Origin: an uncultured Myxococcia bacterium
GTDB lineage: Bacteria > Myxococcota_A > UBA9042 > PHBI01
NCBI GenBank assembly: GCA_942493285.1
Contig: OW818691.1
Location: 8,030,532-8,094,531 of the forward strand
DNA: 64,000 bases
Direction: 5' to 3'
Part shown: positions 12,519 through 57,999 of the stretch, in pieces
Position numbering within the stretch: the stretch's first letter is position 1
How the letters are laid out: each line of letters opens with the position of its first letter
Program-made: the position numbers and the translations under genes
The notes under the pieces: model-generated
Seen by the model: the letters and a program-made list of their open reading frames with translations, nothing else
Told to the model about the DNA's origin: nothing
Database searches by the model: none

Positions 12519-12651
12519 GGCGGACGAACGTAATCCCCCCGCGTCCGCTTGAACAGGCCTGCCCCGTGCGCCCATACTGTGACCAGGCCGGCGCACCACG
12601 CCCGCCAACACTCGCAGCCGCGACCCCACGCCCCTACACCAAGGACCCGCC

Positions 12652-17594: not shown

Positions 17595-17861
17595 CCCAGC
17601 CGCCCACCCGTCGGGCTTGACCGGCCAGTTCACATTGCCACCTCGCCGCCGCTCGCCCCCGCCGCCCCTCACATCCGCCGATCTCGAACCCGCAGAACCT
17701 CTTCCGCAAAGGCCATGCGCGTTGACATGACGGAGTTCCAGGGGCTATTCGACATGCCAACTTCGTTTCGGTCGACATCACCGCAGACGGATAGCCCACA
17801 CCACGGAGCCTCGCCTCAAACCGCGTCGCTCCTTCGGAAGTCACCTCGGGGGAGGGTCGTC

Positions 17862-18659: not shown

Positions 18660-20368
18660 ACCGCTTGTCCATCGCAGCCTGTGCCCTTCTCGCAGGGCTC
18701 ACCCAACTCGCGACCCAGTCCCCCGTCCGCGCCGAGGTTCCCAACCTCATCGCGATTCACGGCGTCTTGAGCGAGATCGACGGGACTCTCGTCGAAGGTG
18801 AGACCGACCTCACGCTCCTGCTCTACGCGGGACCGTTCGAAACGACTCCGATCTGGACGGAAGAGCGCACGGGCGACGACCGCGTCGAGCTTCAGCGAGG
18901 CTACTTCTCGCTCTATCTCGGCGAAGTCGCGCCACTCGACCCGACCATCATCGCCACCGCAGACGAGCTCTGGCTCGCGCTCAAGGTGGGCGACGACGAC
19001 GAGATGACACGTATCCGCTTCCCGTCCGTGCCCTACGCATTCGTGGCCAGCGACGTGCGTGGCGACATCCATCCACGCTCTATCACCGTCGATGGCAAAC
19101 CCATCATCGACTCGGCCGGCCGATGGGTCGGCGAGACCAGCGGCGTCGAAGGTCCTCGCGGCGAACCCGGCGAATCAGTCGTCGCTCTGAGCCTCGGCAC
19201 TGGTGATCCCGACTGCCCCAACGGTGGCTCACGCTTCGAGGTCGCCGGCGCATTCACATACGCCTGCAACGGCGAAACCGGGCCTCAGGGCATCCAGGGC
19301 GAGGTCGGTCCACAAGGCCCCGCGGGCCCCGACAACATCACGACCATCACGGCCGGCACCGGCCTCACGGGAGGGGGCTCGACACCCACGGTCTCCATCG
19401 GCATCGCCGATCTGGGGGTCGGAGCCGTTCAGCTCGCCGCAAACGCCGTCACCACTGCCAAGGTCAGCGACCTCGCCATCACCGACGCAAAGCTCGGGCT
19501 CAACGCCGTGACGACGACCAAGGTTGCCGACCTCGCCATCACCGACGCCAAGCTCGCAGCCAATGCGGTCACGACCGCGAAGGTCAACAATCTCGCCATC
19601 ACCGATGCCAAGCTCGCGCTCAACGCGGTGACGACGACAAAGGTCACCGACCTGGCCATCACCGATGCCAAGCTCGCGCTCAACGCGGTGACGACGACGA
19701 AGGTCGCCGACCTGGCCATCACCGATGCCAAGCTCGCGCTCAACGCAGTGACGACGACGAAGGTCGCCGACCTGGCCATCACCGATGCGAAGCTCGCGCT
19801 CAACGCGGTGACGACGACGAAGGTCGCCGACCTGGCCATCACCGACGCGAAGCTCGCTGCCAACGCCGTGACGACCGTGAAGATCAACAACCTCGCGGTG
19901 ACCGAGGCCAAGCTCGCCAACGGCGCCGTGGCCAACGCCAAGCTTGCGGCGAATGCGGTGACGACGGACAAGATCGCCGACGGCTCCATCACGCTGAGCA
20001 AGACCAAGCTGCCGTCGGCCACGGTCATCGGCTCGACCGAGAACGGTGTGTCGACGTGGTTCGCCACTCAGACCGTGACGCTCGGTGCCGACGATTCCTG
20101 CATCGTCGCGGTCACCGCCAGCACCACCGAGAACGCGTCCTTCCGGGTCCGGCCGGTCCTTCGACTCGGCGCGAACACCGTCTCGCTCAACAGCTTCGGT
20201 CACTCTTCCAGCGTCTCCAGCTCTGCAGGCCAGGACTTCTTCGGTGGGCGCGCCGCTTCGACCACTGCCGTCCTGACCCCAACGGCCGCCGGCAACTGGC
20301 AGGTCGGTTGTGAGATCCCCTTCAACCCGACGACCATCGAATGCGCCGTGAGCTACATCTGCCATTGA
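18656..20368 (+). CDS. Secreted collagen-like/repeat protein: signal peptide, short G-X-Y collagen triple-helix segment, then 9 tandem 20-aa repeats (NAVTTTKVADLAITDAKLAL)
   Basis: Signal peptide MNRLSIAACALLAGLTQLA. GETGPQGIQGEVGPQGPAGP G-X-Y run. 60-bp tandem repeats about 19435-19980, almost identical at the DNA level. ATGA overlap with the upstream gene. Confidence 0.7.
   Translation: MNRLSIAACALLAGLTQLATQSPVRAEVPNLIAIHGVLSEIDGTLVEGETDLTLLLYAGPFETTPIWTEERTGDDRVELQRGYFSLYLGEVAPLDPTIIATADELWLALKVGDDDEMTRIRFPSVPYAFVASDVRGDIHPRSITVDGKPIIDSAGRWVGETSGVEGPRGEPGESVVALSLGTGDPDCPNGGSRFEVAGAFTYACNGETGPQGIQGEVGPQGPAGPDNITTITAGTGLTGGGSTPTVSIGIADLGVGAVQLAANAVTTAKVSDLAITDAKLGLNAVTTTKVADLAITDAKLAANAVTTAKVNNLAITDAKLALNAVTTTKVTDLAITDAKLALNAVTTTKVADLAITDAKLALNAVTTTKVADLAITDAKLALNAVTTTKVADLAITDAKLAANAVTTVKINNLAVTEAKLANGAVANAKLAANAVTTDKIADGSITLSKTKLPSATVIGSTENGVSTWFATQTVTLGADDSCIVAVTASTTENASFRVRPVLRLGANTVSLNSFGHSSSVSSSAGQDFFGGRAASTTAVLTPTAAGNWQVGCEIPFNPTTIECAVSYICH
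19435..19980 (+). repeat. Tandem 60-bp repeat x9; the central five copies are nearly identical at the nucleotide level
   Basis: Repeated ctcgcgctcaacgcggtgacgacgacgaaggtcgccgacctggccatcaccgatgccaag units; in frame. Confidence 0.85.
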
Positions 20369-20736
20369 GTACCGTCGTCATTCTCTCGCTCGCGGTCTTC
20401 GCCTGCGGCTGCAATTCCGCCTCGCCCAACGCGGCGATGGCGCCTGCCTTCGCCTTGGCTTGTGCCTCGACGGACACGCCGACCGAATCCACGTTCCACT
20501 GCGTGCGCACCGACACCCGCAATGGCGACGTGCGCCTCATCGACCTCGACCGCGTCCCTATCACCTCGGGCTCGTCGCGCGCTGGCGACGAGGAGTCCGG
20601 CACCTATCAGACCTTCTGCGACGCCACGACCACATCCCAGACCTCAGACCTGCGCTGCGTGCGTCTCCACACCCGCACCGGTGAGGTCGTCGTGCTCGCC
20701 CTGGCCGAGCTCCCCCGGTGGCCGACCTCTCCGTGA
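20341..20736 (+). CDS. Small lipoprotein (131 aa)
   Basis: Lipobox LAVFACGC after a hydrophobic h-region; GC3 bias. The start is uncertain because it overlaps the 3' end of the preceding gene by 28 nt. Confidence 0.5.
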   Translation: MRRELHLPLSTVVILSLAVFACGCNSASPNAAMAPAFALACASTDTPTESTFHCVRTDTRNGDVRLIDLDRVPITSGSSRAGDEESGTYQTFCDATTTSQTSDLRCVRLHTRTGEVVVLALAELPRWPTSP

Positions 20737-22340
20737 CGCCCGACCACGCTTCGCCCCTGCCTGTCCGCCTCGTCGAGCGATGGCAGGCTTGGCTCCTCCT
20801 GGCTCTGCCGCTCGTGTGGGCGACGCTCGTCCTGTCGGACAACTACTTCACCGACCCGGACAGCTACCTGCACTTCGGCGTCGCCCGCCGCATCGTCGAG
20901 CAGGGTTGGGTCCACACCTTCGAGTGGCTGCCACACACGACGCTACACGACCCCTTCCCCAACATGTACATCGGCCAGCATCTCCTGTTGGCGCCCCTGT
21001 CGCTCCTCTTCGACCCAGAGCTCGGCCTCCGCCTGTCGATCCTCATGCTGAGCAGCCTCAGCACCCTGTCACTCCACCTCGTCCTGAAGCGCAACGGCGT
21101 GACCTTCACCGCCCCGTGGGTGGTTCTCGGCCTGCTCTCCTGCCCGGTGGCCCTGTCGTATTCGGTGTTCCTCAAGGGCGCGACGACTTTCCTCATCCTC
21201 CTCCCCTGGTTCATCGACGCCGTCTGGCGCGCGCACGAACCCACGACTCTCACCAACTGGCGACGATTCCTCCACGGCCCCTGGCGCGTCTATCTGCTCG
21301 CCTGGCTCAGCGTCTATGTCTACGTCGGCGCCACGGTCCTGCTCGGCTTCGTCTTCACCCACCTCGTCGTCGCACGGGTCTGGAACGGGCGCTGGGACCT
21401 GCGACCCCTCGCTGCGACCCTGCTAGGCCTCCTCACCGGGATGCTCCTCAACCCGTCCTGGCCGGCCCACTGGGAGTACGTCGCGCGTGAGCTCCTCACG
21501 GTCTTCAACCGCGACCCGAACCTCGTCCCAGGTGAGTTCCGCGGCGCCGAGTGGGCCATCCTCACGACCGACATGCTGGTCCGGCTCGTCGGCCCCGCAC
21601 TCCTCGTCTGGGCCGCACTCCTGCTGACAAACCTGCGCCTCGGCGCGCGCCTCGACGCCAAGTCGGTGAGCGGTGCCATCGCCTCTCTGGGTCTCCTCTT
21701 CCTGGGGCTGCTCTCGGGCACCAAGCTCATCCAGCTCTTCGTCTTCGTGTCCGTCCTCACGCTCCCACTCATCGCCGGCCAGCTCACCTCGACCCTGCGA
21801 ACCGACCCCCAGCTCCGGCTCTCGCCGCGCGGACTTCACCTCGTCACGGCCCTCGCCCTCGCCTTCGGAATCGGCACCAGCGCGTTGTCCTACTCGACGC
21901 TTCGCACCGAGCTCGCCGAGCCCTACGTCGCCAGACCAACCGACTATCGCGACCTCGCCGAATGGTTCGTCGAGCGCACCGGCCCACGAGAGATGGTCGT
22001 CGCCCCATGGGACGTCATGCCCGGCCTGTTCCTGTTCGGGACCGACCAACGCTTCATGGCCGGCTACAACGTCCAGTTCCTGCGCGACCACGACGAGCAG
22101 CGATTCAACGCCTATGTCTTCTTTCAGCGCGGCCAGGTCGCCGACCCTGAAGCCACGATGGTCCGATTCTTCGACGGCGCGCGCTTCGTCATCGTGCACC
22201 GGGTGCCGCGCTCCGCCGGCGAATCGCTCCTCACCGAACGCCTGGCCGAACGCCGAACCCACTTCGTCGAGCTGGCCTCGCCGAGCAACCTCTGGCGTAT
22301 CTTCCGCCGCCTGCCGAGCGCTGGTGAGGGCCTGCCGTGA
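20718..22340 (+). CDS. Polytopic membrane glycosyltransferase, GT-C fold (ArnT/PMT/GT39-83-like), putative
   Basis: 540 aa with at least 10 predicted TM helices. The first periplasmic loop carries an acidic DxD-like DPDSY motif after TM1, as in ArnT/PMT enzymes. It is immediately followed by, and overlaps, a GT2 polyprenyl-phosphate glycosyltransferase gene. Confidence 0.55.
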   Translation: MADLSVTPDHASPLPVRLVERWQAWLLLALPLVWATLVLSDNYFTDPDSYLHFGVARRIVEQGWVHTFEWLPHTTLHDPFPNMYIGQHLLLAPLSLLFDPELGLRLSILMLSSLSTLSLHLVLKRNGVTFTAPWVVLGLLSCPVALSYSVFLKGATTFLILLPWFIDAVWRAHEPTTLTNWRRFLHGPWRVYLLAWLSVYVYVGATVLLGFVFTHLVVARVWNGRWDLRPLAATLLGLLTGMLLNPSWPAHWEYVARELLTVFNRDPNLVPGEFRGAEWAILTTDMLVRLVGPALLVWAALLLTNLRLGARLDAKSVSGAIASLGLLFLGLLSGTKLIQLFVFVSVLTLPLIAGQLTSTLRTDPQLRLSPRGLHLVTALALAFGIGTSALSYSTLRTELAEPYVARPTDYRDLAEWFVERTGPREMVVAPWDVMPGLFLFGTDQRFMAGYNVQFLRDHDEQRFNAYVFFQRGQVADPEATMVRFFDGARFVIVHRVPRSAGESLLTERLAERRTHFVELASPSNLWRIFRRLPSAGEGLP

Positions 22341-23233: not shown

Positions 23234-25183
23234 TCACTCCGCGACGGTGACCGGGACAGTGAAGCTCTCGTCCATCGCCAACACCTTCGCCTGCCAGTCG
23301 CGCCCCGTGTAGGTGTGCCGCGCGCGGATCTGAATGGTCGTTTCCCCAGCGGCCCGAAGGGCTTCGAGGTCGACCTGCGTCCCATCGAAGACCATGGTCT
23401 TGAAGCGGCCGGCATAGGTGTTGGTGATGTCGGCCCCGGCAGTCGGGAAGGCGAATCCGTAGGTTGGAATGACCAACCGCTTCGCGATCCCGTCTTCGAC
23501 CCCCACGAACTCCCAGCGGAACTCGATCGAGTTCTTCTTCGTCAAGGTCGCCGTCAGACCTGCCACCGTCAGGACGTCGGGAAATGCCGCGATTTCCACG
23601 AAGTCCAACACCCCATTGCGGTCGAGGTCACCAAAGCCCATCTCCGCCCAGGCGACCTCGTCGCCCGGGTGTGGTGGACCCGACAACATGTTGCCCATCA
23701 GCTCGAGCGGATATTGCAGCTGCCCCGCCAGATCGAGATACAGGTCACGCGCCCCATACGAATGTGCCAGCTCATGTGCAATCAGATAGGCGTTGTACGG
23801 CGACCAGATGGCCATGTGCCCCTTCTCGAAATACAACCCGCCGAACCCCCAGAAGTCCATCGACGGTGCCGACACGATGAGCTTGTCATATCCCTCGAGC
23901 ATCGGGCACCCGCGGGCCGCAAGCCATGCGTCGAGCTCCCGCGAATAGTCCGACCAATAGTTCGCCCCGGTCAGGAAGTCGCTCGCCTGGACGCCGCCCG
24001 TGACGATCCACTCGAAGTCCACGACCTCGCGCCCGGCGCGCCGCATCCCCAGGTCCGCATACCAGCTCTCGATAGTAGCGAAGTCGATCTCGTCTTTGAC
24101 ATCCTCGAACCGGTTCTCGCACGGGTCCTCGAACTGCGTGTGGCTGTCGACCAGCACCAACCGGATCCGCTGATTGCCAATTGGCAGTCCGTTGGCAGAC
24201 CCGAGCCAAGGCACCTGATTGACACACTTGCCATCGACACACGCTCCGTCCGTGCACTCGGCATCGCTGCAGCACATGGCCCCCGGAAAGAAGACTCCGT
24301 CGCAACACACCGCGCTGAAGTAGCTCTGGCTCGGCGTCTCACACTCCCCCGCGCACCACGTCGCCGGGAAGTGATACTGCCCACAGCTCACCGCCTCGGT
24401 GTCCGGAAACAACACCGCCGCTCGCGGCTCGAAGATATTGTCGACCTCGTCGGTCCCTTCCAGACGCGTCCCGAAGACCAGCGTGACGATGATGTCGCCG
24501 CCCGCCGAGAACACCGTCGGTCGCTGCGCGGTGAGCGTCGCGGTCAAGGTCACGGACGCATTCGCCGCAAGCTGGAAGCCCTCTGTGTCGGCCCAGGTCG
24601 CATCCGCCAGGAGCCACGTCTGCGGGTTCTTCCATCGGAACGGCACATTCAGCTCGGCGTTCGTCTTGTTCACCAGCCGAACCTCGAACGGATACGTCTC
24701 ACCGACCACGGCCTCATCGGGTGCCGAGATGACCTGCACCTCGTGGGTCCCGAAGTCGGTGGTCAAGGTCGCCTCACCCGTGCTGAGCCGATGGCACACC
24801 CCGAGCTTCACCTCACCCTTACACCGCAGGACGTCATCGACCGGCATGCACCGACCCGGGCACAACCCCGCTCCATCGAGCAGCATGTTGCACGCCTCGA
24901 GGTCCTGACACACTCGCGGCTCGACGACCTCTGCCTCCGCGTCGTCGGCGCCGTCCACCCCGTCCAACCCATCCACCCCGTCCGCCCCGTCAGGCCCCAC
25001 CGCGTCGCCATCATCGCCGTCCTCGGCCGCGTCGCCGTCAACCGGCCCGACCCCGTCGTCCGTGTCCACGCCATCCGCCAATGCGTCCCGCGGCCCTTCG
25101 CCCTCGTCCCCACCACATGCGGGGCCGACCGACACAACCATCGACAACGACAACAAGAACAGCGGCACGAGCGACTTCATGGC
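23234..25183 (-). CDS. Secreted lipoprotein, putative zinc metallopeptidase (HExxH) with Asp/Gly-rich linker and Cys-rich region
   Basis: Signal/lipobox MKSLVPLFLLSLSMVVSVGPACGG. A DGxDG acidic low-complexity linker. HELAHSYG zincin-like motif. Many Cys pairs. Confidence 0.6.
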   Translation of the reverse strand, partial: AMKSLVPLFLLSLSMVVSVGPACGGDEGEGPRDALADGVDTDDGVGPVDGDAAEDGDDGDAVGPDGADGVDGLDGVDGADDAEAEVVEPRVCQDLEACNMLLDGAGLCPGRCMPVDDVLRCKGEVKLGVCHRLSTGEATLTTDFGTHEVQVISAPDEAVVGETYPFEVRLVNKTNAELNVPFRWKNPQTWLLADATWADTEGFQLAANASVTLTATLTAQRPTVFSAGGDIIVTLVFGTRLEGTDEVDNIFEPRAAVLFPDTEAVSCGQYHFPATWCAGECETPSQSYFSAVCCDGVFFPGAMCCSDAECTDGACVDGKCVNQVPWLGSANGLPIGNQRIRLVLVDSHTQFEDPCENRFEDVKDEIDFATIESWYADLGMRRAGREVVDFEWIVTGGVQASDFLTGANYWSDYSRELDAWLAARGCPMLEGYDKLIVSAPSMDFWGFGGLYFEKGHMAIWSPYNAYLIAHELAHSYGARDLYLDLAGQLQYPLELMGNMLSGPPHPGDEVAWAEMGFGDLDRNGVLDFVEIAAFPDVLTVAGLTATLTKKNSIEFRWEFVGVEDGIAKRLVIPTYGFAFPTAGADITNTYAGRFKTMVFDGTQVDLEALRAAGETTIQIRARHTYTGRDWQAKVLAMDESFTVPVTVAE

Positions 25184-25260
25184 AACCTCGGGGCGAAGGC
25201 GGGAGCCTCTACCGGAAACCACCCCTCGAGTCACGCCCTCGCTGCGAATCGCTACGAAGC

Positions 25261-28200
25261 TCAGCCCGGGTCCTTCGGCCGACGCACACGCGCGCGCTCC
25301 GTCGGAGGCTCCTCGCTCGGCTTCACCGTCGCTCCGCCGACCCCACCCAGCAGCGCCAACAGCTCCCGCGTGAGGGCCGTCGTCTCGTCGAGGTTCTTCG
25401 TCGCCGCCCGCGCCACCGGGATCAACGCGTCGCGCAACACCTCGTTCTGATGGGCGAAGAACGCGCTCAGGTCCGGCGCCGCCACCTCGACCTTCACGTC
25501 CGGGACCCGCACCATCGGCTGCGGAACCGCCGGTGGTGTCGCCACGGCCGCCGCCTTCGCCGCCGTCCCAACCGGCGCCGCCCCCGACGGCGCCACTCCT
25601 CCGCTCACCGTCAATGGTCGCCTCAACGCCTCACGCAACGACGCGATCGCCTTACCCAACTCGCTCACGGCCTCGGCCATCCGCTGCCCCGTCTCGTCGG
25701 CCGCGCCCACGCCCACGCCTGCGCCCGCGCCCGCGCCCACGCCAGCGCCTGCGCCCGCGCCCACGCCAGCGCCCGCGCCCACGCCCGCGCCTGCGCCCAC
25801 GCCCGCCTCCGCCCTCGCTCGGTCGACCCGCTCGGCTTGCGCCTCTTGCGCCGCGACCACCTTCTGCGCCGCCTCGACCAGCGCCCCACGAATCGACCCC
25901 AGCTCACGCCCCATCAAAGACAACTGGCCGGTCACCCGCGTCGCCGGGTCATCCTCCTTGCCGCCGAGCTGGTTACGCCGCACATACTCGCCCTTGATGG
26001 CCTCCCAGCGCTCCTTCTCGGCGCCCTTCAGCGTCCCGCGCAATTCCTTGAGCTTCAAGATATTCGCTTCCGCCCCGGTCGTCAGCGTCTGCGCCTCGCC
26101 CTGGTAATGCCCGTCCAACAACCGCTCGAGCTCGTCGGGCGTCAGCGCCGCCACGACCTTCTCGGCCAGCTTGTTCATGTTGCGGTAGCTGCCCTGCAGC
26201 TTGAAGGGCGGCTCCGTCCGGTAAGCATCCGCAGTCGCCGCCGACGCGATGTACTGCAGGTTGACCGCCAGCAGGACCTCCTGGCACCGGATCAACAGCT
26301 TGAAGATCGAGAGAATCTCGCTCAGCTCCGCCGCCGAGTACCCGTGGCTCAGGTCGGTCGTCGCCACCTGCTCGCCCTTCGCCATCCGGATGAGCTTCAG
26401 AATGTCCCCCGCGTCGCGCGCCGCCAGCGGCGCCAACACCGAGTTCGCCGTCAACGAGTTCTCCAGATAGCTCAGTGCAAAGGCCTCCTTCTTGCCGTCG
26501 AGAATATCGCCAAGGTTGTAGATGTCGGCGCGATTGGCCAACATATCCGGGATCTTGAACGCCTCGCCGCCCTCGGTATAGGGGTTGCCCGCCATGACCA
26601 CACAGAACTTGCGGCCACGCATGTCGTAGGTCTTGGTCCGCCCCCGCCACACACCTTCGATCTTACGCTGCCCGTCGCACAGCGAGATGAACTTCTGCAG
26701 GAACTCCGGATGGGTGTGCTGGATGTCGTCGACCAGCAGCATCACGTTGTTGCCCATCTCGAGCGCAAAGTTCAGGCGTTCGATCTCCTGGCGCGCCGTC
26801 GCGTTCGGCGCCTCCTGCGGGTCCAACGACCGCACATCGTGTCCCAGGGCCGGCCCATTGACCTTCACGAAGACCATGCCGAGTCGGCTCGCGACGTACT
26901 CCATGAGCGTCGTCTTGCCGTAGCCCGGCGGCGAGATGAGCAACAGGAGCCCCATCAGGTCGGTACGCTTCGCGTCGCCCGCGGCGCCGATCTGCTTGGC
27001 CAGGTTCGCCCCGATGAGCGGCAGGTACACCTCGTTCAACAACTGGTTGCGCACGAAGCTCGACAAGATCTGCGGCTTCACCTCGTGGATGCGCAGCTCA
27101 CGTTTGCGCCGCTCGATGAGCCCGGTTAGCAGGTCTCGAAACGCCCGATACCGCGGCACATGATAGGCCCGATAGCTCGAAATCCGAGACAACAGCTCGT
27201 CGAGCCGCACCTCCAACTTGCGCTCGACGACCCGCCCATGCTGGCCGAGCAACCCGTCGACGCTGCCTCTCACCCGTGCCTGGCTCGTCTCTCGCGACAG
27301 GCCCGGCGTCACACACACGACGGCCGCCTCGAACCGATAGGGCCCGAACCTCTCCGGCTCGATGGCCGCGACCGCGTCCACCCAGCTCTTCGCCAGCGCC
27401 AGCCGCCCGGCGACATCCCCATCCAGCGCTCTCAGCTCGTCGTCGAGCCGCGGATTCTCCCGCCGCACCTTGTCGACGAGCTGGTCGCTCTCGCCAGTCG
27501 TCGTGAAGTAGACCGGCTCACGCCCGAGCTCAACGACCAGGAACCGCGTAGCCTCGTCGACCACCGCCTGCACCGCCAAGGCCGAGATCCCGATCTCACG
27601 ACACCACTCACCGACCTTCGCCGCGATCTCTGCCGCCAGCGTCGCCCCGCCCGTCGCCAGGGCCGAGCTCGCGCCCGTCGCCCGACTCGCCCCCAGATGC
27701 GCCAGGCTCACGGCTCGCCGCTGCGCAAACTTCGCCGCCGCCGTCTCGCCCTGATGGTGCCACCACAGAGCCGCCAGCGCCCTCGAGTCAGCCGAGAACC
27801 GTAGCCGCCCGGCCGTCTTCATCATGTCGATGAGCACCGCCAGGATCTTCGTCGCGTCCGCATCATGCAGCCCACGCTCATAACCTTCGCTGTACCGCTC
27901 GTTGGCCACCCCACGCACGAGCTCGAGCAAGGTCTTGCCCTCGCCGCGCTCCGCCGCGAGCAACTCCGCCATGGTCGGCGCTTTCGGCACCCCCAGCTCG
28001 GCGTCCAGAAAGATGCTCGCCGCCAGGAACTCCGCCCGATAGACCTCACTCGTCTCGCTCACCAGCGTCTGGTCCCAGAGCGCCCGCGACTCCACCACGA
28101 CCGGGTCGTCGACCGCCTCGTAATAGTCCGTTCCGGTCAGGTGCAGCGCCAGCCCACCGTCGCGCGGCACGACCGTCATCTCGAAGCTCTGCGTGTTCAC

Positions 28201-30852
28201 GAGAAAGCGGTGCCGCCCGAACTTGATGATGTCGGCGCCGTCTTCGAACAGCTCGAGCTTGTCGCGCAACCCGCGCAACCCGTCTTGTTTCGCGGCCTTG
28301 AGGCGCGAGCCGACCTCGTCGCTCTTCACCGAGTCGCCGAGCTCCAACAGCTGGTCGGCCAGCTGCCGCAGCTTTTGCACCATCGCATCGGCCGCGAAGT
28401 ACGCGTTGAGCTCGTCCTCGCTCTTGAAGGTCCGCGACCGCCTCACGACCCCTTCGATGATCCGTTTGCTCGCCTCGACGAGGTTGGCGACCTTCTTCTG
28501 CTTCTGGTCGAGTAGCGCCTGCTTCTTCGCCGCGAAGGCCTCGTAGACCTCCTCACGTTTCCCCTGCAGGTCTCTGACGAAGACCTCGTGCTCCGAGAAG
28601 CGCCCCTCGAGCTCTTCGAGCTGTACCATGAGGCGCGACAGCCCGGTGTCACACGCCTCGGGTGTCTCGCTCATCGCGAGAGCGGTGCCTGTAGCCTGCC
28701 CGAAGAGCCGGAACTGCGCTGCGAACTCGGCCTTGTCCTCCGCCTGCCCGAGCTCGCTCTTGCGGTTGTTGATCTCGGCCCGCACCCGGTTCATGTGCCC
28801 GAAGGTCTCGGACAACCCTTCGAGGATTTGTGTCCGCACGGTCGGGTCGTCCACCTGCAGGGTCGAGATGGTCTCGCTCAACACCTCCAGACCACGCGCC
28901 AGGTCTTCGATGCCCTTGCGGGTCGGCTCGAGGTCGCTGACCTTCTTGGCCTTCACCCCGACCCCGAGGATCTCATCGAGCTTCTTGCCGAACGGCGCCA
29001 ATGCGTCGTTCTTCGACAAGAAGACAACAGCCGCCTTCGACACCGCGTCGAACAGCTCGCTTGTCTTCTTCTCGAGCCCGTCGATGGCTTTCAGGTCGAT
29101 GTAGCGCACCTCGCGCAACGAGATGAGATGACCCCGCTGTGACCGCAGCGCGCTCATCCCCAGCATAAACCTGTCGATGTCCTTCCAGTGCTGATAGTCG
29201 GTCTTCTTCTCGAGGTCCGCCTGGCTCGCCTGCGCCTCCTTCAACGCGGCTTCCGCACGCGACTTGTGCGCCAGGACCTTTTCGAACTCGTCGATGATCT
29301 GCTCGACGTTCTGGCGGATCTGCACCAGCACGCTCGCCAGGTCCTCACACTCCTCGCGGCCAAGCCAATGGAAGCTGTCCACCATCCGCGTCTGGTGGCT
29401 GACGATGTCCTCGAAGCGTTCACGCGACGGCTCTGGGTGCCGCACCCGCGCGACCAGAGCAAAGCTCTCCGAGATCCCACGCACCAGGTCCGCGTTGCCG
29501 ACCTTGCTCAGAAAGCTCCCGTCCCCCTTCTGGCTCGCCGCAAACTCGGGCGAACAGAACGGGGTCCTCCACACCTGCACCGGGTGCACCCGCACCGCCT
29601 CGTGGCCGACGTGCCGCAAGACAACCATGCGCCCATCGGGAAACAAGCTGTACCCGTCACACGCGATGGGGTTCTGCACCTCGCGCCGAATCAGGTTGTA
29701 CGGAAACAGCAGATAGTCGCCCGTGCCACGATGGTGAAAGACGTAGAGCACGTCCTCGCCGTTGGGGGCCGAGATCTGGCGCTTGAACTCGAGGTCGCTG
29801 ACGTCGAGCTCGAAGAGCTTGTACTCGCCCGTTTGCAAGTAGTAGCCGCCAGGAAACAAAATCCCCTGGTCCTCGGGCAGCGCCACACACGCCTGTCCGA
29901 TGGCGTCGATCCGCACCACCGACTTCGCCCGCGTATTGTAGACGAGGTGCCGATAGGCGGTCTCCCGAAATGGTTTGATTCTCAAGAGAATCAGCGTCCC
30001 CACCTCGGCCCAGCTCAGCTCCATGTCGTCGAGCGACTGGTTCTTGTCCTCGACCGGCTCCGCGTAGATCCCGCGCCCCGACTCGGTATTGTCCTCGACC
30101 TTGATGGTGAGGTCGCCGCCCAACGTCTCGACGAAGACCTTGTCGCGCACCGAGATGTGCGGGAAGCGCCCACGACGCTGGTCTTCACGCACCGACCGCG
30201 TCCACGCGAATGAGTGCGAGCTCGGATAGACGTGGTCGCGTTCCCCTCGATTGTCGAGATAAGTCGCGAGTCCATCCGGGGTCAGTTGCCAGCGCAGGAC
30301 CTTGATGTCGCGATAGGTCGCGCCCACCTGGAAGACCGCCAACAGCTTGTCGGTCTTACGCAACTGGATGAGGCGTGTGTCCTTGTAGTACTTGCGCAGC
30401 TCATCGAATTCACGCTGGAAGTTCGCTCCCGAAAACAGCCCGGCGTTGACCTCGTTCGGGTTCACCTCCGAGAAGTCGAAGCCTCCGACCTGGCCTTCCG
30501 ACGCCTCGACTTCCGCGAAGCGGTGCATCGTGAAGACGTCGCTCAGCGTGAACTCGGTCCTCAGCCCCAGATAGACCGTGTAGCCGACGAGCAGGTGGTC
30601 GCCGAGCGCCACGACATCGGCCGGGATGCAGTTGTTCTCGGTGCGGATCCGCTCGTTGCCGATGACCTGCAGCTCGGTCCCACCGAAGGTCGCCTTACGC
30701 CGCTCGTTGAGGCGCCCGGCGCGATTCGACAGCTCGTCAGCGAGCCCATCGAGCCGCCGCTTGAGGACCTCATAGTTGCCGGTCGCCAGCGCCGAGTCGA
30801 CCTCGGTCTTCGCTGTCTTGCCGGTGCTGCCGGTGCTGGGAGGAGTCGCCAT
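25261..30852 (-). CDS. Giant (1863 aa) multidomain protein with a MoxR/AAA_5-type ATPase domain, long coiled-coil regions and a Gly-Ala dipeptide repeat; function unknown
   Basis: Walker A SPPGYGKTTLMEYVA, Walker B MLLVDDIQ, and sensor-1/AAA_5 signature VVMAGNPYTEGGEAFKIPDMLANRA (compare atqNP..g...Lp.AL.DRF). The large N-terminal region (about 520 aa) and C-terminal region are unrecognised. A (GA)n/(GVGAGA)n tract precedes the C-terminus. It lies 4 bp downstream of the flotillin gene on the same strand. Confidence 0.75.
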   Translation of the reverse strand: MATPPSTGSTGKTAKTEVDSALATGNYEVLKRRLDGLADELSNRAGRLNERRKATFGGTELQVIGNERIRTENNCIPADVVALGDHLLVGYTVYLGLRTEFTLSDVFTMHRFAEVEASEGQVGGFDFSEVNPNEVNAGLFSGANFQREFDELRKYYKDTRLIQLRKTDKLLAVFQVGATYRDIKVLRWQLTPDGLATYLDNRGERDHVYPSSHSFAWTRSVREDQRRGRFPHISVRDKVFVETLGGDLTIKVEDNTESGRGIYAEPVEDKNQSLDDMELSWAEVGTLILLRIKPFRETAYRHLVYNTRAKSVVRIDAIGQACVALPEDQGILFPGGYYLQTGEYKLFELDVSDLEFKRQISAPNGEDVLYVFHHRGTGDYLLFPYNLIRREVQNPIACDGYSLFPDGRMVVLRHVGHEAVRVHPVQVWRTPFCSPEFAASQKGDGSFLSKVGNADLVRGISESFALVARVRHPEPSRERFEDIVSHQTRMVDSFHWLGREECEDLASVLVQIRQNVEQIIDEFEKVLAHKSRAEAALKEAQASQADLEKKTDYQHWKDIDRFMLGMSALRSQRGHLISLREVRYIDLKAIDGLEKKTSELFDAVSKAAVVFLSKNDALAPFGKKLDEILGVGVKAKKVSDLEPTRKGIEDLARGLEVLSETISTLQVDDPTVRTQILEGLSETFGHMNRVRAEINNRKSELGQAEDKAEFAAQFRLFGQATGTALAMSETPEACDTGLSRLMVQLEELEGRFSEHEVFVRDLQGKREEVYEAFAAKKQALLDQKQKKVANLVEASKRIIEGVVRRSRTFKSEDELNAYFAADAMVQKLRQLADQLLELGDSVKSDEVGSRLKAAKQDGLRGLRDKLELFEDGADIIKFGRHRFLVNTQSFEMTVVPRDGGLALHLTGTDYYEAVDDPVVVESRALWDQTLVSETSEVYRAEFLAASIFLDAELGVPKAPTMAELLAAERGEGKTLLELVRGVANERYSEGYERGLHDADATKILAVLIDMMKTAGRLRFSADSRALAALWWHHQGETAAAKFAQRRAVSLAHLGASRATGASSALATGGATLAAEIAAKVGEWCREIGISALAVQAVVDEATRFLVVELGREPVYFTTTGESDQLVDKVRRENPRLDDELRALDGDVAGRLALAKSWVDAVAAIEPERFGPYRFEAAVVCVTPGLSRETSQARVRGSVDGLLGQHGRVVERKLEVRLDELLSRISSYRAYHVPRYRAFRDLLTGLIERRKRELRIHEVKPQILSSFVRNQLLNEVYLPLIGANLAKQIGAAGDAKRTDLMGLLLLISPPGYGKTTLMEYVASRLGMVFVKVNGPALGHDVRSLDPQEAPNATARQEIERLNFALEMGNNVMLLVDDIQHTHPEFLQKFISLCDGQRKIEGVWRGRTKTYDMRGRKFCVVMAGNPYTEGGEAFKIPDMLANRADIYNLGDILDGKKEAFALSYLENSLTANSVLAPLAARDAGDILKLIRMAKGEQVATTDLSHGYSAAELSEILSIFKLLIRCQEVLLAVNLQYIASAATADAYRTEPPFKLQGSYRNMNKLAEKVVAALTPDELERLLDGHYQGEAQTLTTGAEANILKLKELRGTLKGAEKERWEAIKGEYVRRNQLGGKEDDPATRVTGQLSLMGRELGSIRGALVEAAQKVVAAQEAQAERVDRARAEAGVGAGAGVGAGAGVGAGAGAGVGAGAGAGVGVGAADETGQRMAEAVSELGKAIASLREALRRPLTVSGGVAPSGAAPVGTAAKAAAVATPPAVPQPMVRVPDVKVEVAAPDLSAFFAHQNEVLRDALIPVARAATKNLDETTALTRELLALLGGVGGATVKPSEEPPTERARVRRPKDPG
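25700..25815 (-). repeat. Hexa/dodecanucleotide tandem repeat encoding a (G-A/G-V-G-A) tract within the giant ATPase gene
   Basis: gcgcccacgcc(c/a)gcgcctgcgcccgcgcccacgcc periodicity on the plus strand. Confidence 0.75.
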
Positions 30853-30856
30853 GGAC

Positions 30857-33154
30857 TCAATCGCCGAGCTTGAGCTCTTCGATACCGAGCGCCTTCAGGT
30901 CGGCGACGATCTTGTCGAGCTTCTTCTTCGTCGTGGAATCGGCCCCACTCGCGAGCTTCGCCATGAGCGCCGCGATGGACACATCTTTCAACGTCTCGGT
31001 CGTGATGGCCGGCCGCGACAGGACCTCCTTCACGTCGTTCGCCAGAGAAGCTTGACCTTCGAGATAATCCTTGGCGACCGCCTTGACCGTCTTGCTGTTG
31101 TCGACCACCCCGTCGATGGTGCGGCCGACCGTGACCGCCTTGATGAAGCGGTCGAAGAACTGCCCGTCGCCACCCACGATCTGGATGTTCGCTGCCCCGA
31201 AAGCCTCGGCCAGGACCTTGGCCTGCGACTCCGCGATGTGCTGCTGGACACGAATGGTCTCGAGCTCGACGGCCTTGTCCTTGTCGAGCCGCAGCCGGAA
31301 CTCCTCGTGTTCACGACCGACCCCGTCGAGCGCCTTCATCGCCGCGCCCTTCTCGGCGATGCCCGCCGCCTCCGCCAGGAGCTTCTGCTTGATGCCCTCG
31401 GCCTCGGCCAACCCACGCCGCTCGATGGCGCCCGCGTCGGCGAGCTTCACCGCGGCCTCGGCCATGCCCTTCTCCTTCATGCCCTCGGCCTCGGCCAGGC
31501 CCTTGGTGCGGATGCCCTCAGCCTCGGCGACCAGGGTCTCACGTGTTGCCTTGGCCTGCGCCAGCCCCTCGGCCTCGATGCCCTGGGCGGCGGCCATTCG
31601 TTTCTCACGCACGACGTTCGCCTCGGCGAGCCCACGCTTCTCGATGATGGAGGCTTCCGCATCCAACACCTTCACCTTGGCGAGCCCGTGCTTCTCCTCG
31701 CCCTCGGCCCGTACCTTGGCCTTCTCGAGCTCGACCTTGGCCTCTGCCAGCCCGAGCTTCTCGGTGGCGACCGCGTCGGCCTCCTTCACCTTGACCCGCG
31801 CCAACCCTTCGGCCGCCTGCTCGGCCTGCACACCTTCGGCCTTACGGATCTTGGCCGTCGCCTCCTTGTCTGCCACCGTCAGCTCGGCATCCGCCATCGT
31901 CAGCTTCTCACGCGCCGAGAACTTCGCGACCTCCTCGCTCGCCTCGGCGGCCTTGATAGTCTTGACGAGCTTCTCTTGCGCCTCGGCCTCGGCCGCGATG
32001 ACCCGCACGCTCTTGTCGCGCGTGGCACCCGCTTCGGCCTGTACGTCTTTGATACGCTCCTGCTCGACGGCCACGTCCCGGTCGACGACGACACGCATAC
32101 GGATGACGTCGGCGATCTCCTTCTTCTGGATCTCGAGCTCCTTCTCCTTGGCGATCCGCATGAGCTCGACCTCACGCTCACGCGCGATCGACTCGAGGTC
32201 CCGGTCCTTGGTGACCCGTTCGTTCTCGATGGCGACGATACGCTCACGGTTCTTCTGGGCGACCTCGATCTGGCGCTGCTTGTTGGCCTCGGCGACCTGC
32301 ACCTCTTCCTCGGCCTTGATCTGCGCCAGCGCCGAGCGCTTGGCCTCCTCGGCCTGCACGCTCTGAGTCTCGGCCTGCTCACGCGCCTGCATCGTCTGGA
32401 TCTCGCGCTGCTGCTTGGCGCGCGCGTCGGCCTCCTGACGTTGCAGCGCCAGGATCGCCTCCTCGGCCTCGGTGTTCTCTTTGGTGACGGCCTTTCGTTC
32501 GGTCTGCTTGAACTGGTTCGTCTGGATGTTCTGGAAGCTCGTCAGCTCGGTGATCTTCCGAATACCTTGAGCATCAAGGATATTGGCCGGGTCCATGTGT
32601 TCGATGGAGGTCTGCTCGAGGTAGTCGATGGCCGCATCCTGCAGGACATATCCATTGAGGTCGCCGATGACCTCGATGATCTCGTCCTTGAACATGTGCC
32701 GCTTCTCGTACAGCTCCTCGAAGTCCATCCGCTTGCCGACCGTCTTCAACGCCTCGGAGAAACGCGGCAGGAACAAGTCTTCGAGCGTGTGCTGGTCGGA
32801 TGCGCGCCTGACCCCGATGGTCTGCGCGACCTGCAGCACCGCGTCCTTGGTCTTGTTGACCCGCACGTAGAAGCTGACCTTGATGTCCGCGCGGATATTG
32901 TCGCGGCAGATGAGGCCGTCATTCGCGCGCCGCTCGAGCGTGATGGTCTTGAGCGAGATGTCCATGACCTCCGACCGGTGGATGATCGGCAAGACCACAG
33001 CCCCCGTGAAGTAGACGTCCGGCTCGTCGCGCATCCGATTGACGATGAGGGCCTGGCCCTGGTCGACCTTCTTATAGAAGCGCGCCCACATGACGAGGAT
33101 CGCGAAGATGAAGAAGAAGACGATGGCGATGATGATGAGAATCATGGGGTCCAA
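30857..33154 (-). CDS. Flotillin-family SPFH/band-7 protein (FloT/YqiK-like) with a very long Glu/Ala-rich coiled-coil C-terminal region
   Basis: N-terminal TM helix (MDPMILIIIAIVFFFIFAILVMWARF). SPFH core (QALIVNR...VVLPIIHRSEVMDISLKTITLER...). EA-repeat coiled coil (GLAEAEG... repeats) typical of flotillins. Confidence 0.85.
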   Translation of the reverse strand: MDPMILIIIAIVFFFIFAILVMWARFYKKVDQGQALIVNRMRDEPDVYFTGAVVLPIIHRSEVMDISLKTITLERRANDGLICRDNIRADIKVSFYVRVNKTKDAVLQVAQTIGVRRASDQHTLEDLFLPRFSEALKTVGKRMDFEELYEKRHMFKDEIIEVIGDLNGYVLQDAAIDYLEQTSIEHMDPANILDAQGIRKITELTSFQNIQTNQFKQTERKAVTKENTEAEEAILALQRQEADARAKQQREIQTMQAREQAETQSVQAEEAKRSALAQIKAEEEVQVAEANKQRQIEVAQKNRERIVAIENERVTKDRDLESIAREREVELMRIAKEKELEIQKKEIADVIRMRVVVDRDVAVEQERIKDVQAEAGATRDKSVRVIAAEAEAQEKLVKTIKAAEASEEVAKFSAREKLTMADAELTVADKEATAKIRKAEGVQAEQAAEGLARVKVKEADAVATEKLGLAEAKVELEKAKVRAEGEEKHGLAKVKVLDAEASIIEKRGLAEANVVREKRMAAAQGIEAEGLAQAKATRETLVAEAEGIRTKGLAEAEGMKEKGMAEAAVKLADAGAIERRGLAEAEGIKQKLLAEAAGIAEKGAAMKALDGVGREHEEFRLRLDKDKAVELETIRVQQHIAESQAKVLAEAFGAANIQIVGGDGQFFDRFIKAVTVGRTIDGVVDNSKTVKAVAKDYLEGQASLANDVKEVLSRPAITTETLKDVSIAALMAKLASGADSTTKKKLDKIVADLKALGIEELKLGD

Positions 33155-33257
33155 GACGCACCTCGGATTCAGGGTCGGACATCGTTAGCCTCACCCGCCC
33201 CCACGCGCAAGAGCACCCCATCGACAAGCACTCGCCCCGGCTCTACAGTCCCTCGCC

Positions 33258-33974
33258 ATGGACCTCTTCACCGAGCTCATGGCCATGCCGACCGGCATCT
33301 TCACGGTCCTGCTTGGCCTCGTCATCCTCTACTGGGTGCTCTTCCTCATCGGCAGCCTCGACCTCGATGCCCTGGGTGGCGCGGATGGCGCGGCCGAAGG
33401 TGCCCTGGGTGGCGCGGATGGCGCGGCCGAAGGAGCCGCCGAGGGTGCCGCCGAAGGTGCCATGGAAGGCGGCGCCGAGGGCGCGGTCGAAGGCGCCACC
33501 GGCCTCCTCCACGCGCTCAAGCTGCGGTCCGTTCCGGCCACGGTCGCCGTCTCGTTCTTCGTCTTCCTGGGCTGGATCTCGAGCTACCTCGCGCTCAAGC
33601 TGCTCGGCCCCGTTCTGCCCGACATGCTGGCTCAGCTCGTCGTCTTCGTCCTCGCCTTTGCCGGCGGCCTCTTCGGCGCCTCACTCGCCGTGCGCCCGTT
33701 CGCGAAGCTCTTTGTCGACCACAAGGTCACGCGCCTGAAAGACCTCGTCGGCCGTGTCGTGACCATCACCACGGGTCGCGTCGACGAGCGCTTCGGACAG
33801 GCGAGCTGCGACACAAGCGCCAGCCTCATCCTCGAGGTCCGCGCGAAGAAGGGCTCACCCCTCAAACGCGGCGATGCAGGCCTCCTCATCGACTACGACG
33901 AAGAGACCCGCAGCTTTACCGTGGAGCCGGCCGACGCGCTGCTCGTCGAGACCCGCCACCTGTCGTCGAAGTAG
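33258..33974 (+). CDS. NfeD/YqiJ-like membrane protein (N-terminal TM helices, G/A/E-rich linker, C-terminal OB-fold)
   Basis: Hydrophobic N-terminus, an internal 33-bp duplicated repeat encoding LGGADGAAEGA, and a C-terminal beta-barrel segment VGRVVTITTGRVDERFGQASCD...LILEVRAKKG as in NfeD short homologues that partner with flotillins. Divergent from the flotillin gene. Confidence 0.65.
   Translation: MDLFTELMAMPTGIFTVLLGLVILYWVLFLIGSLDLDALGGADGAAEGALGGADGAAEGAAEGAAEGAMEGGAEGAVEGATGLLHALKLRSVPATVAVSFFVFLGWISSYLALKLLGPVLPDMLAQLVVFVLAFAGGLFGASLAVRPFAKLFVDHKVTRLKDLVGRVVTITTGRVDERFGQASCDTSASLILEVRAKKGSPLKRGDAGLLIDYDEETRSFTVEPADALLVETRHLSSK
33370..33440 (+). repeat. 33-bp direct duplication (ctgggtggcgcggatggcgcggccgaaggtgcc) within the NfeD-like gene linker
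   Basis: Two adjacent, nearly identical copies followed by degenerate GAEG-encoding units. Confidence 0.7.
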
Positions 33975-38656: not shown

Positions 38657-38671
38657 TGGCACGGACCTTGC
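38657..38671 (+). promoter_or_regulatory. Candidate sigma-54 (-24/-12) promoter TGGCAC-N5-TTGC
   Basis: Exact match to the consensus spacing: tggcac ggacc ttgc. It sits in a 600-bp divergent intergenic region. Confidence 0.4.
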
Positions 38672-38771: not shown

Positions 38772-38972
38772 GCCCGAGCACGATGCCTTGGAGGCATGAC
38801 GACCGGCCACGTAGTCGGCCTCGCTCGTTCAACGGGCTTCGAGGCGCCCTGATCGCCAGGGTTACGCGCCATCACTCGACGAGGCGGGTGCGTACCTGCT
38901 TTCGCACTTCGGAATGGACATCCGCTTCGGATGTTCCTATGGGAGCGCGCGTGTCGGCCGACCTCGGAGACT

Positions 38973-40310
38973 ATGCACGACCCCGGTTCTCAGCTCCAAC
39001 CCTTGCCCCTCAAAGACCCGCCGCACGGCCCAGGTGACGTCGTCGACTACAATGTCGACGCGCCAAAGCCGCGTTCGCCCACGGGCTCGCATGAGGTGCC
39101 CCCCCGCTCTGGCGGACGCGTCTGGCCATGGCTCGTCGTGGTCGCAGCCCTGCTCGGCTGCGTCTACTCGGCGCTCTCCACCCACAGCTTCATCCTGCGG
39201 CTCGACGGCCAGACCCATGCGGTCGCCTGCGCCATTCTGCCAGGTGACGCCGACCAGTCGACGGGCTGCGTCACAGCACTTCTATCGCCCTACAGCTCGG
39301 TGTTCCGCGCGAGCATGTGGGGTGGCATCCCCATCAGCCTGCCGGCCTTTGGTGTCTTCGCCTTCATCGCGGCATTCGCCGCATGGGTGGGCCTGAAGCG
39401 GGACCGCATGCGGGTCGACACGGGCTTCCTCTTGTTGGCGACGCTCCTCCCCGTCGGGGCCAGCGCGTTCTTCGCCTACATCTCGGCCACCCGGCTCGGC
39501 GAGTTCTGCTCGACGTGTGTCGGCATCTACATCGCGTCGGGGCTCGGCTTCCTCTTCGCGTTGATCGCCCACATCCGAACGCAGCCGACCCCCGACGGCG
39601 TCGGTCGCTGGGGACGCTGGTTCCTGTGGTTCTTCGAGGGCGCCGCCATCGTCGGCACGCTGGTATTGCTCTACATCATGCTCGCGCCGAGCGACCGAGA
39701 GAGCGTCGCACGTGGCTGTGGTGAGCTCGTGAAGCGTGAGGACGAGGCGCAGATCCTCTTGAAGAAGCGCGACTCGACCGAGGCCGTCCCGGGTGTCTCG
39801 AAGGTCTCGGCCCTGGTGGTCGTCGACCCGCTCTGCCCATCCTGCAAAGGCCTCGACGAGCGCCTCTTCGCGAGCGGGCTCGGTGCGCGGCTCGACCTCG
39901 ACGTGTTGTTGTTCCCGCTCGACTCCAAGTGCAATTGGATGGTGAAGAGCTCGCCGCATCCCGGGGCCTGCCTCGTCAGCGAGGCGATGTTGTGCGCGCC
40001 CGAGTCGGCGCATCGTGTCCTCGAATATGCGTACGCCGACCAGGAGCGACTCCTCGAGCTCGGCAAGACCAACGAGTCGGCGCTCAAGGCCGACCTCGAG
40101 CAGAAGTTCCCCGATGTGAAGGGGTGCGTCGGAAGTGCGGCGGCCAAAGCCAAGGTCAACAAGAGCCTTCGGTTTGCGGTCGCCAACGCGATGCCGGTCA
40201 TGACGCCCCAGCTCTTCGTGGCGGGCAGCCGCATATGTGACGAGGACACCGACCTCGGGCTCGAGTTCACGCTGACGCGGATGCTCGACCGTTCCAGTCC
40301 GGTTCAGTGA
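38973..40310 (+). CDS. Vitamin K epoxide reductase (VKOR) homologue fused to a periplasmic thioredoxin/DsbA-like domain (DsbB-analogous disulfide oxidase)
   Basis: Polytopic N-terminal domain with a loop Cys pair and the active-site CSTC (CxxC) in a TM helix. C-terminal soluble domain with CPSCK (CxxC) in a thioredoxin-like context. Confidence 0.75.
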   Translation: MHDPGSQLQPLPLKDPPHGPGDVVDYNVDAPKPRSPTGSHEVPPRSGGRVWPWLVVVAALLGCVYSALSTHSFILRLDGQTHAVACAILPGDADQSTGCVTALLSPYSSVFRASMWGGIPISLPAFGVFAFIAAFAAWVGLKRDRMRVDTGFLLLATLLPVGASAFFAYISATRLGEFCSTCVGIYIASGLGFLFALIAHIRTQPTPDGVGRWGRWFLWFFEGAAIVGTLVLLYIMLAPSDRESVARGCGELVKREDEAQILLKKRDSTEAVPGVSKVSALVVVDPLCPSCKGLDERLFASGLGARLDLDVLLFPLDSKCNWMVKSSPHPGACLVSEAMLCAPESAHRVLEYAYADQERLLELGKTNESALKADLEQKFPDVKGCVGSAAAKAKVNKSLRFAVANAMPVMTPQLFVAGSRICDEDTDLGLEFTLTRMLDRSSPVQ

Positions 40311-49432: not shown

Positions 49433-49442
49433 GGTGAAGACT

Positions 49443-50558: not shown

Positions 50559-50559
50559 C

Positions 50560-56553: not shown

Positions 56554-56557
<4 letters not shown>
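56087..56557 (+). CDS. Universal stress protein (UspA family)
   Basis: About 156 aa; ATP-binding G-x2-G-x9-G(S/T) motif GSHGRKGLQRFFLGSVAERV. Confidence 0.8.

Positions 56558-57999
<1,442 letters not shown>

Follow-up and report, generated by a model that had tools for sequence, protein, structure and literature searches.

The stretch of DNA analysed here, hereafter the window, comprises 64,000 nucleotides (nt) of contig OW818691.1 from an uncultured Myxococcia bacterium (assembly GCA_942493285.1). This study concerns three neighbouring genes within it, which encode a flotillin-like protein, a giant AAA+ ATPase and a YqiJ/YuaF-like membrane protein. The window has a G+C content of about 67%, and its best protein matches are to Myxococcota. 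An earlier note on this DNA had described a flotillin gene 4 base pairs (bp) from a co-directional gene for an ATPase of 1863 amino acids (aa), together with a divergent YqiJ-like gene; the open reading frames (ORFs) and the 4-nt gap were found as claimed. The G+C content at third codon positions (GC3) is 0.87-0.89 in the ATPase, flotillin and yqiJ-like ORFs, and such values in a high-GC sequence indicate that all three are real genes. The locus is laid out as follows:

33258-33974, plus strand: membrane protein resembling YqiJ/YuaF, 238 aa, transcribed divergently from the flotillin gene
33146-33257, no strand: 112 bp separating the divergent yqiJ-like and flotillin genes, presumably holding both promoters
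30857-33145, minus strand: YqiK-type flotillin, 762 aa, with a transmembrane (TM) anchor, an SPFH/band-7 domain, a coiled coil and a flotillin-type C-terminal region
25261-30852, minus strand: 1863-aa AAA+ ATPase, cytoplasmic and without TM segments, DUF3686 family, assigned to the BacE/PA3728 orthologue group

The flotillin-like ORF extends over 30857-33154 on the minus strand. Its likeliest start is the ATG at 33145, which yields a protein of 762 aa that begins MILIIIAIVFFF. The stop codon TGA (30857-30859) is followed by 4 nt (30853-30856) and then by the ATG of the ATPase gene at 30852. A pattern scan found no sigma54 -24/-12 match upstream of the flotillin gene in 33146-33257. A single sigma70-like match in this divergent region (33221-33249, plus strand) is at chance level, as is the result of a terminator scan.

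Domain architecture of the giant ATPase

The ATPase consists of a large N-terminal domain, a helical region, a conserved middle region, a single AAA+ module and a variable tail. From the N- to the C-terminus its features, all on the minus strand, are:

29368-30735: DUF3686 domain, aa 40-495, predicted to be beta-propeller-like; a long N-terminal helix, then about 30 beta-strands; invariant RTENNC at aa 70-75
28273-29295: coiled-coil/helical region, aa 520-860, which includes DUF7902; in the model of aa 1-520 helices appear from aa 435 on
26983-28275: middle region, aa 860-1290, conserved; a small beta unit, then an all-alpha domain (about 250 aa) and a long helix into the AAA+ module
25873-26970: the one AAA+ module, aa 1295-1660, including its helical lid and extension, delimited by Pfam, alignment and model
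26908-26925: Walker A, GYGKTT, aa 1310-1315
26725-26739: Walker B, LLVDD, aa 1372-1376
26614-26667: pre-sensor-1 beta-hairpin, predicted from the structure model
26581-26595: sensor 1, MAGNP, aa 1420-1424
26524-26541: candidate Arg finger, LANRAD, aa 1438-1443
25264-25872: variable C-terminal tail, aa 1661-1863; a poly(Gly-Ala/Val) tract, a linker rich in Ala and Pro, and a short helix that is conserved

The N-terminal 500 or so residues, which the earlier note had called unrecognised, are assigned by Pfam to DUF3686 and then to DUF7902. The DUF3686 (PF12458) match scores 632.3 bits against a gathering cut-off of 25 (E = 5e-190) and covers the profile completely (1-448 of 448), while DUF7902 (PF25472) lies at aa 616-699 (nt 28756-29007; E = 7e-22). 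An unrecognised C-terminal region of similar size had also been proposed; the poorly conserved part amounts to only about 200 aa (aa 1661-1863). A database search returned more than 6137 ATPase homologues with the same Pfam architecture, many of which carry the NCBI name 'DNA repair ATPase'. An exhaustive search with aa 1-520 gave 728 clusters at 50% identity, in which the domain is almost always N-terminal and full-length members measure about 1600-1900 aa.

Two segments of the ATPase (aa 1-520 and aa 860-1665) were modelled with AlphaFold, using 56-sequence alignments. The model of aa 1-520, with a predicted local distance difference test (pLDDT) score of 87.7 and a predicted template modelling (pTM) score of 0.84, consists of a long helix, about 30 beta-strands and, at the C-terminus, a bundle of helices; the DUF3686 region is thus modelled as beta-propeller-like. 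The model of aa 860-1665 (pLDDT 85.4) shows the beta unit, the all-alpha domain, one AAA+ alpha/beta core and the helical lid with its extension. Its pLDDT is mostly above 90 in the middle region, where the all-alpha domain contains the motif EGYERGxHDxD (aa 989-999; nt 27856-27888), invariant in 56 of 56 aligned homologues. A sequence search of the PDB found no solved relative of the ATPase outside the P-loop region. The ATPase has no hydrophobic or TM segment; the flotillin and the YqiJ-like protein are membrane proteins.

Within the tail, the poly(Gly-Ala/Val) tract occupies aa 1683-1717 (nt 25702-25806) and corresponds in the DNA to a hexanucleotide-based tandem repeat (25701-25806). Near the tail end, a helix at aa 1795-1836 (nt 25345-25470) carries the motif 'IE..LIP[LV]..', in which P1812 is invariant. 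The LIP[LV] motif is also present in loci from Myxococcota, Acidobacteriota, Planctomycetota and Pseudomonas/Methylomonas, and the whole tail is absent from the ATPase versions of Actinomycetota and Enterobacterales. This conserved helix may be a tethered partner-binding peptide.

Placement of the AAA+ module

The motifs GYGKTT, LLVDD, AGNP and ANRA and the poly(Gly-Ala) tract, on which the first description of the ATPase had drawn, are all present. Walker A, Walker B (in its D-D form), the sensor-1 Asn and the candidate Arg finger are each invariant among 20 sequences, over which the ATPase has a mean column identity of 57%; this invariance speaks for an intact motor.

Asking to which AAA+ clade the module belongs, we compared profile, sequence and structure searches. 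The core had been described as MoxR/AAA_5. The AAA+ fold itself stands, and the MoxR proteins NorQ and CbbQ are among the fold matches with the best coverage and have the top target-normalised TM-scores (0.53-0.57). The more specific assignment fares less well: AAA_5 scores 21.7 bits, just below its Pfam cut-off of 22, AAA_3 (MoxR proper) has no Pfam match at E<=0.1, and PF00004 (AAA) scores higher, with 29.9 bits against a cut-off of 21.2 in a match confined to aa 1303-1393. The nearest solved sequences in the PDB are Rpt3, p97, Rix7 and RuvB. In Foldseek, the AAA+ model matches RuvB, Ycf2/FtsHi, NorQ, ClpA, MCM, Lon and ClpX with E values that are alike, at about 1e-5. The AAA+ fold is confidently modelled, and RuvB, NorQ, ClpX, Lon and MCM among these matches represent hexameric motors. 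The label 'MoxR/AAA_5' is therefore weakly supported.

A beta-hairpin precedes sensor 1 in the AAA+ model, and a helix-2 beta-insert is not evident there. Classical AAA proteins such as Vps4 and FtsH do not have a pre-sensor-1 hairpin. As judged from the model, this AAA+ motor probably falls within the pre-sensor-1-hairpin superclade. The remark in the earlier note that no VWA partner accompanies the ATPase was borne out, as no VWA-domain protein was found in the scanned window ORFs or in the conserved neighbour clusters. Because the MoxR/AAA_5 assignment is weak, this absence is no anomaly.

The flotillin-like and YqiJ-like proteins

The flotillin-like protein has one TM anchor, at its N-terminus (aa 1-26), and a long Ala/Glu-rich coiled coil. 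It shares 29% identity with Escherichia coli YqiK over 437 aa (BLASTP, E = 9e-38), and hhalign aligns the two with a probability of 99.9%; the homology runs through the SPFH domain and coiled coil (aa 1-420). Pfam Band_7 gave no match to the flotillin at E<=0.1, and so the flotillin call rests solely on YqiK homology. NCBIfam FloT matches collinearly with 18 bits against a cut-off of 700; the protein is therefore not a FloT equivalog. Sequence searches of the PDB returned no solved flotillin relative, even with a 25-sequence profile.

In the YqiJ-like protein there are three hydrophobic segments, a loop rich in Gly, Ala and Glu, and a putative NfeD-like soluble region at the C-terminus. A 24-sequence profile of this protein aligns with E. 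coli YqiJ over TM2-3 and the C-terminal domain (hhalign 94.7%, E = 6e-8). The Pfam YqiJ_N match is weak, at 14 bits against a cut-off of 23, and reaches E<0.01 in one of the 24 homologues. In the closest relative (locus L082), whose YqiJ-like protein and ATPase are 59% and 73% identical to those of the window, the yqiJ-like gene is likewise divergent. The inversion of yqiJ is a rearrangement specific to this lineage.

The loop between TM1 and TM2 (aa ~38-82; 33368-33501) is a Gly/Ala/Glu-rich 'GADGAAEGA…' repeat, encoded by tandem DNA repeats of 12, 33 and 36 bp. A similar, longer tract is found in the closest relative.

Conservation of the flotillin-ATPase linkage

To survey gene neighbourhoods, one genome per GTDB species was scanned with patterns derived from the ATPase alignment, and the best 80 of at least 568 relatives were analysed. 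Their neighbouring genes were identified by tblastn and by all-against-all clustering of ORFs. The loci come from Myxococcota, Actinomycetota (Nonomuraea, Micromonospora, Streptomyces, Amycolatopsis and others), Gammaproteobacteria (Pseudomonas, Pseudoalteromonas, Xenorhabdus, Lysobacter, Methylomonas and others), one betaproteobacterium, Planctomycetota and Acidobacteriota. Identity between the ATPases across phyla is 44-55%.

A flotillin homologue lies upstream of the ATPase gene and on the same strand in all 79 loci with upstream DNA, the eightieth (L017) being the one without it. The two genes lie no more than 150 bp apart in 60 of the 75 loci measured, and 4-bp overlaps are frequent; in the window the gap is 4 bp. 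This adjacency is far beyond chance. A YqiJ homologue precedes the flotillin gene on the same strand in 74 of the 80 loci. The association of ATPase and flotillin is thus real, which removes the objection, raised in the earlier note itself, that orthologues of the ATPase might prove unlinked to SPFH genes.

Additional genes accompany the module in part of the sample. DUF2170 (YjfI-like) genes occur in 18 loci and PspA/IM30 genes in 17, in both cases ahead of yqiJ, and a PLD-family gene follows the ATPase gene in 10; all of these loci are proteobacterial. The conserved neighbours include only membrane or PspA-system genes, with no DNA-repair gene among them.

The flotillin/ATPase pair is split in only two loci. 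In L064 (6892-9986), an NYN-domain gene and a HepT toxin-like gene stand between flotillin and ATPase, and in L014 (4056-9351) the intervening genes encode an OmpA/thrombospondin-repeat protein and other surface proteins.

The gene directly downstream of the ATPase gene in the window (23234-25234, minus strand) encodes a 666-aa protein with a lipoprotein-like signal (…VGPAC), a linker rich in Asp and Gly, segments rich in Cys and a HELAH zinc-metalloprotease-like motif of the HExxH type; it has no Pfam match. It was considered as a fourth member of the operon and rejected, as neither the 80 loci nor the two closest relatives have a homologue beside the ATPase gene.

A published operon and the bac cluster of Pseudomonas aeruginosa

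It had been suggested that the ATPase might be undescribed. Its family, domain architecture, operon and operon co-transcription are already in the databases and the literature. In their comparative account, Ravi et al. (mSystems 2024; preprint 2020; PMC11237479) describe an operon of a band-7/flotillin protein, a YqiJ/YuaF protein and an AAA+ ATPase with beta-propeller and coiled-coil regions. There, the operon is joined to a CesT/Tir-PspA pair, and a PLD hydrolase is added in some Proteobacteria. The same passages mention 'related abbreviated operons' (flotillin, YqiJ/YuaF and sometimes the ATPase) that are 'more widely distributed' (Ravi et al., 2024). Pfam gave no match to DUF2170 or PspA_IM30 in any scanned ORF of the window, which therefore holds the 'abbreviated' form.

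The longer form, found in Gamma- and Betaproteobacteria, has the CesT/Tir-like DUF2170 protein YjfI and the PspA protein YjfJ ahead and often a PLD gene after; in P. aeruginosa it is bacABCDEF, an operon with a proposed dependence on sigma54. This operon was first reported as a 'biofilm-associated cluster', PA3729-PA3732, in which PA3731 is PspA-like, PA3730 a 23-kDa TM protein and PA3729 a 76-kDa protein (Macé et al., 2008; PMC2587700). A 2024 study widened the cluster to bacABCDEF (PA3732-PA3727; PA14_16140-16200) and proposed a sigma54 promoter for it (PMC10948618). Reverse transcription PCR gave products over every bac junction, including bacD-PA14_16190 (bacE) and bacE-bacF, so that bacC, bacD and bacE are co-transcribed, and in a bacA mutant the bac proteins jointly accumulate 6- to 13-fold (PMC10948618).

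The published primers can be placed on the genes surveyed here. The bacD/bacE forward primer is exact in the flotillin ORF of Aquipseudomonas alcaligenes and has one mismatch in four other Pseudomonas-group loci, and the reverse primer fits, with one indel allowed, the codons for RTENNCIA, the signature of DUF3686. In a review table PA3728 appears as 'ATPase', and the gene order in other Pseudomonas loci is DUF2170-PspA-YqiJ-flotillin-ATPase-PLD. From the synteny in six other Pseudomonas-group loci, the primers and the table, BacC is predicted to be the YqiJ-like protein, BacD the flotillin-like one and BacE the ATPase with DUF3686. Reported phenotypes of the P. aeruginosa bac genes concern biofilm, swarming and rhamnolipids, and PA3728-PA3732 are induced by lytic phage infection in this species.

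Other features of the window

Several further observations were made outside the three-gene locus. A perfect sigma54 -24/-12 consensus (TGGCACGGACCTTGC) is present at 38657-38671 on the plus strand, where it precedes a VKOR-domain gene (38931-40310) by about 260 bp, and an NtrC-type sigma54 activator gene lies at 56554-57999. A 782-aa STAND-type NTPase with weak NB-ARC/NACHT/AAA_16 matches is encoded at 4635-6983 on the minus strand; the several large ORFs that flank it (27-2486, 2515-3933, 8892-11129 and 11139-12725) have no Pfam match. Two runs of co-directional plus-strand ORFs show good coding GC3 and no Pfam match: one at 17715-22340 (314, 688 and 540 aa) and one at 47651-52395 (593, 382 and 611 aa). 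The plus-strand GC skew is strongly and persistently negative (-0.12 to -0.28) at 10001-32000, whatever the gene orientation.

Proposed function and alternative explanations

With moderate confidence, we regard the locus as a three-gene, abbreviated version of a membrane-stress module that is already known and widespread, in which flotillin and/or PspA assemblies would be remodelled at the expense of ATP. The best reading of the ATPase, by analogy, is as a membrane-associated, chaperone-like AAA+ protein. The earlier note had arrived at a similar idea, which accords with the published prediction and with the conserved linkage to flotillin and YqiJ. In the mechanism we propose, the flotillin would oligomerise with its YqiJ partner at the inner face of the membrane. 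The ATPase would be recruited via its propeller, its coiled coils or its C-terminal tail and would oligomerise through the AAA+ module. Its ATP hydrolysis could then assemble, remodel or disassemble the flotillin assemblies; where PspA is present, PspA/ESCRT-III-like assemblies may be further targets in envelope stress. The functional analogue would be the action of Vps4 on ESCRT-III, or FtsH-HflK/C, where an AAA+ machine works together with an SPFH cage.

Several points weigh against this interpretation. The remodelling mechanism is inferred from gene context and analogy. A PspA gene was not found among the scanned ORFs of the window, and in the window's lineage the inverted yqiJ is not co-transcribed with the flotillin and ATPase genes. 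The Walker B motif is D-D rather than the canonical D-E, and ATP hydrolysis might for this reason be slow or regulatory. Finally, the survey covers the 80 highest-scoring loci out of at least 568 relatives, and more divergent members might be without the linkage.

Three other explanations of the ATPase were weighed against a role in membrane remodelling. That it is a MoxR-type chaperone like RavA, NorQ or CbbQ, acting in cofactor insertion or membrane-complex maturation with the flotillin as a mere scaffold, appears unlikely to us. The TM-scores of NorQ and CbbQ speak for such a role, as do the predicted pre-sensor-1 beta-hairpin and the NP...IPDMLANRAD spacing, which resembles that of AAA_5/MoxR proteins. 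Against it stand the Pfam scores and the VWA search given above, the Foldseek E values, which do not discriminate between RuvB, Ycf2/FtsHi, ClpA and NorQ, and the 1300-residue N-terminal extension, which has no MoxR counterpart. An anti-phage or abortive-infection system, in which the ATPase senses infection and SPFH/YqiJ (with PLD in some cases) damage membrane or nucleic acid, is very improbable. It could account for the induction of PA3728-PA3732 on phage infection, for the PLD/HKD-family gene that ends some proteobacterial versions, and for the NYN and HepT insert in the L064 operon. Yet phage induction also fits a phage-shock-type envelope stress response, and the phenotypes in P. aeruginosa are biofilm formation, swarming and rhamnolipids. 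PADLOC matched the ATPase at P-loop level only (E ~0.005-0.01) and returned nothing for the flotillin and the YqiJ-like protein. The surroundings in the window are ordinary and chromosomal (carAB, rsmB, miaE, glycosyltransferases), and the operon is vertically widespread, at the identities between phyla given above, rather than patchy.

The remaining alternative takes the databases at their word: the protein would be a DNA repair ATPase, and its adjacency to flotillin incidental. PF12458 is described as 'ATPase involved in DNA repair', in line with the NCBI name, and the ATPase bears a weak, P-loop-level likeness to RuvB. This likeness, however, is generic for AAA+ proteins, with 19-22 bits against cut-offs of about 280-300, and is common to proteasomal, p97, Clp, Lon and MoxR ATPases. 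Pfam detected no nuclease, helicase or DNA-binding domain in the ATPase, and the conserved neighbours belong to the membrane and PspA systems. A literature search found no paper with DUF3686 or PF12458, nor one that combines flotillin with 'DNA repair ATPase', and no experimental support for the name was found. We consider this explanation extremely unlikely and the database name probably a misnomer.

Within the preferred reading, that of a membrane-stress module, a more specific idea concerns the motor itself. A recent review notes of PspA that a regulator resembling Vps4 'appears absent in bacteria' (PMC7619361). By analogy, the DUF3686 ATPase might be a bacterial Vps4 counterpart, a dedicated motor that would disassemble or remodel flotillin (SPFH) cages and/or PspA polymers at the membrane, recruited by its propeller or by the LIPL helix. 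We put this forward tentatively, as a possibility that is on balance doubtful; the conserved operon context favours something Vps4-like. If true, a Vps4-like remodeller of flotillin or PspA polymers would be important.

The window is one more example of a published operon. Its interest lies in the scale of the family, which counts more than 6000 sequences from at least five phyla, including those of P. aeruginosa, Xenorhabdus and Streptomyces, and is among the most highly conserved of its size. Joining the work on the bac genes to comparative genomics makes P. aeruginosa a ready system in which to study the remodelling of flotillin and PspA assemblies.

Comparison with known systems

The operon described by Ravi et al. 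(2024) and the locus in the window agree in their three proteins, in the domain architectures and in the order of flotillin followed by ATPase. Unlike the longer form in that account, the window has no adjacent CesT/Tir-PspA pair and no PLD gene, and its yqiJ gene is inverted. The bac operon of P. aeruginosa comprises six genes and a proposed sigma54 promoter, whereas the window has three genes and no upstream sigma54 site. In the bac papers BacD is not called a flotillin, nor BacE an AAA+ ATPase, and Ravi et al. do not mention the bac operon in their passages on this module. E. coli has yqiJ-yqiK without the ATPase gene, and sibD/ibsD follow yqiK. The window flotillin exceeds E. coli YqiK by about 200 aa, which lie in its coiled-coil/C-terminal part.

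Like the MoxR ATPases NorQ, CbbQ and RavA, the window ATPase has a single AAA+ module and a similar spacing of sensor 1 and Arg finger; unlike them, it carries a huge N-terminal propeller/coiled-coil extension, and no VWA partner was found in the scanned ORFs and neighbour clusters. With Vps4 and FtsH it shares no homology past the AAA+ core. It is without an MIT domain, a protease domain and a TM anchor, and according to the model it apparently possesses a pre-sensor-1 hairpin, unlike these two classical AAA proteins. The likeness to Vps4/ESCRT-III and to FtsH/HflK-HflC would instead be one of principle, an analogy in which an AAA+ motor is coupled to a membrane-scaffolding oligomer of the SPFH or the PspA/ESCRT-III superfamily.

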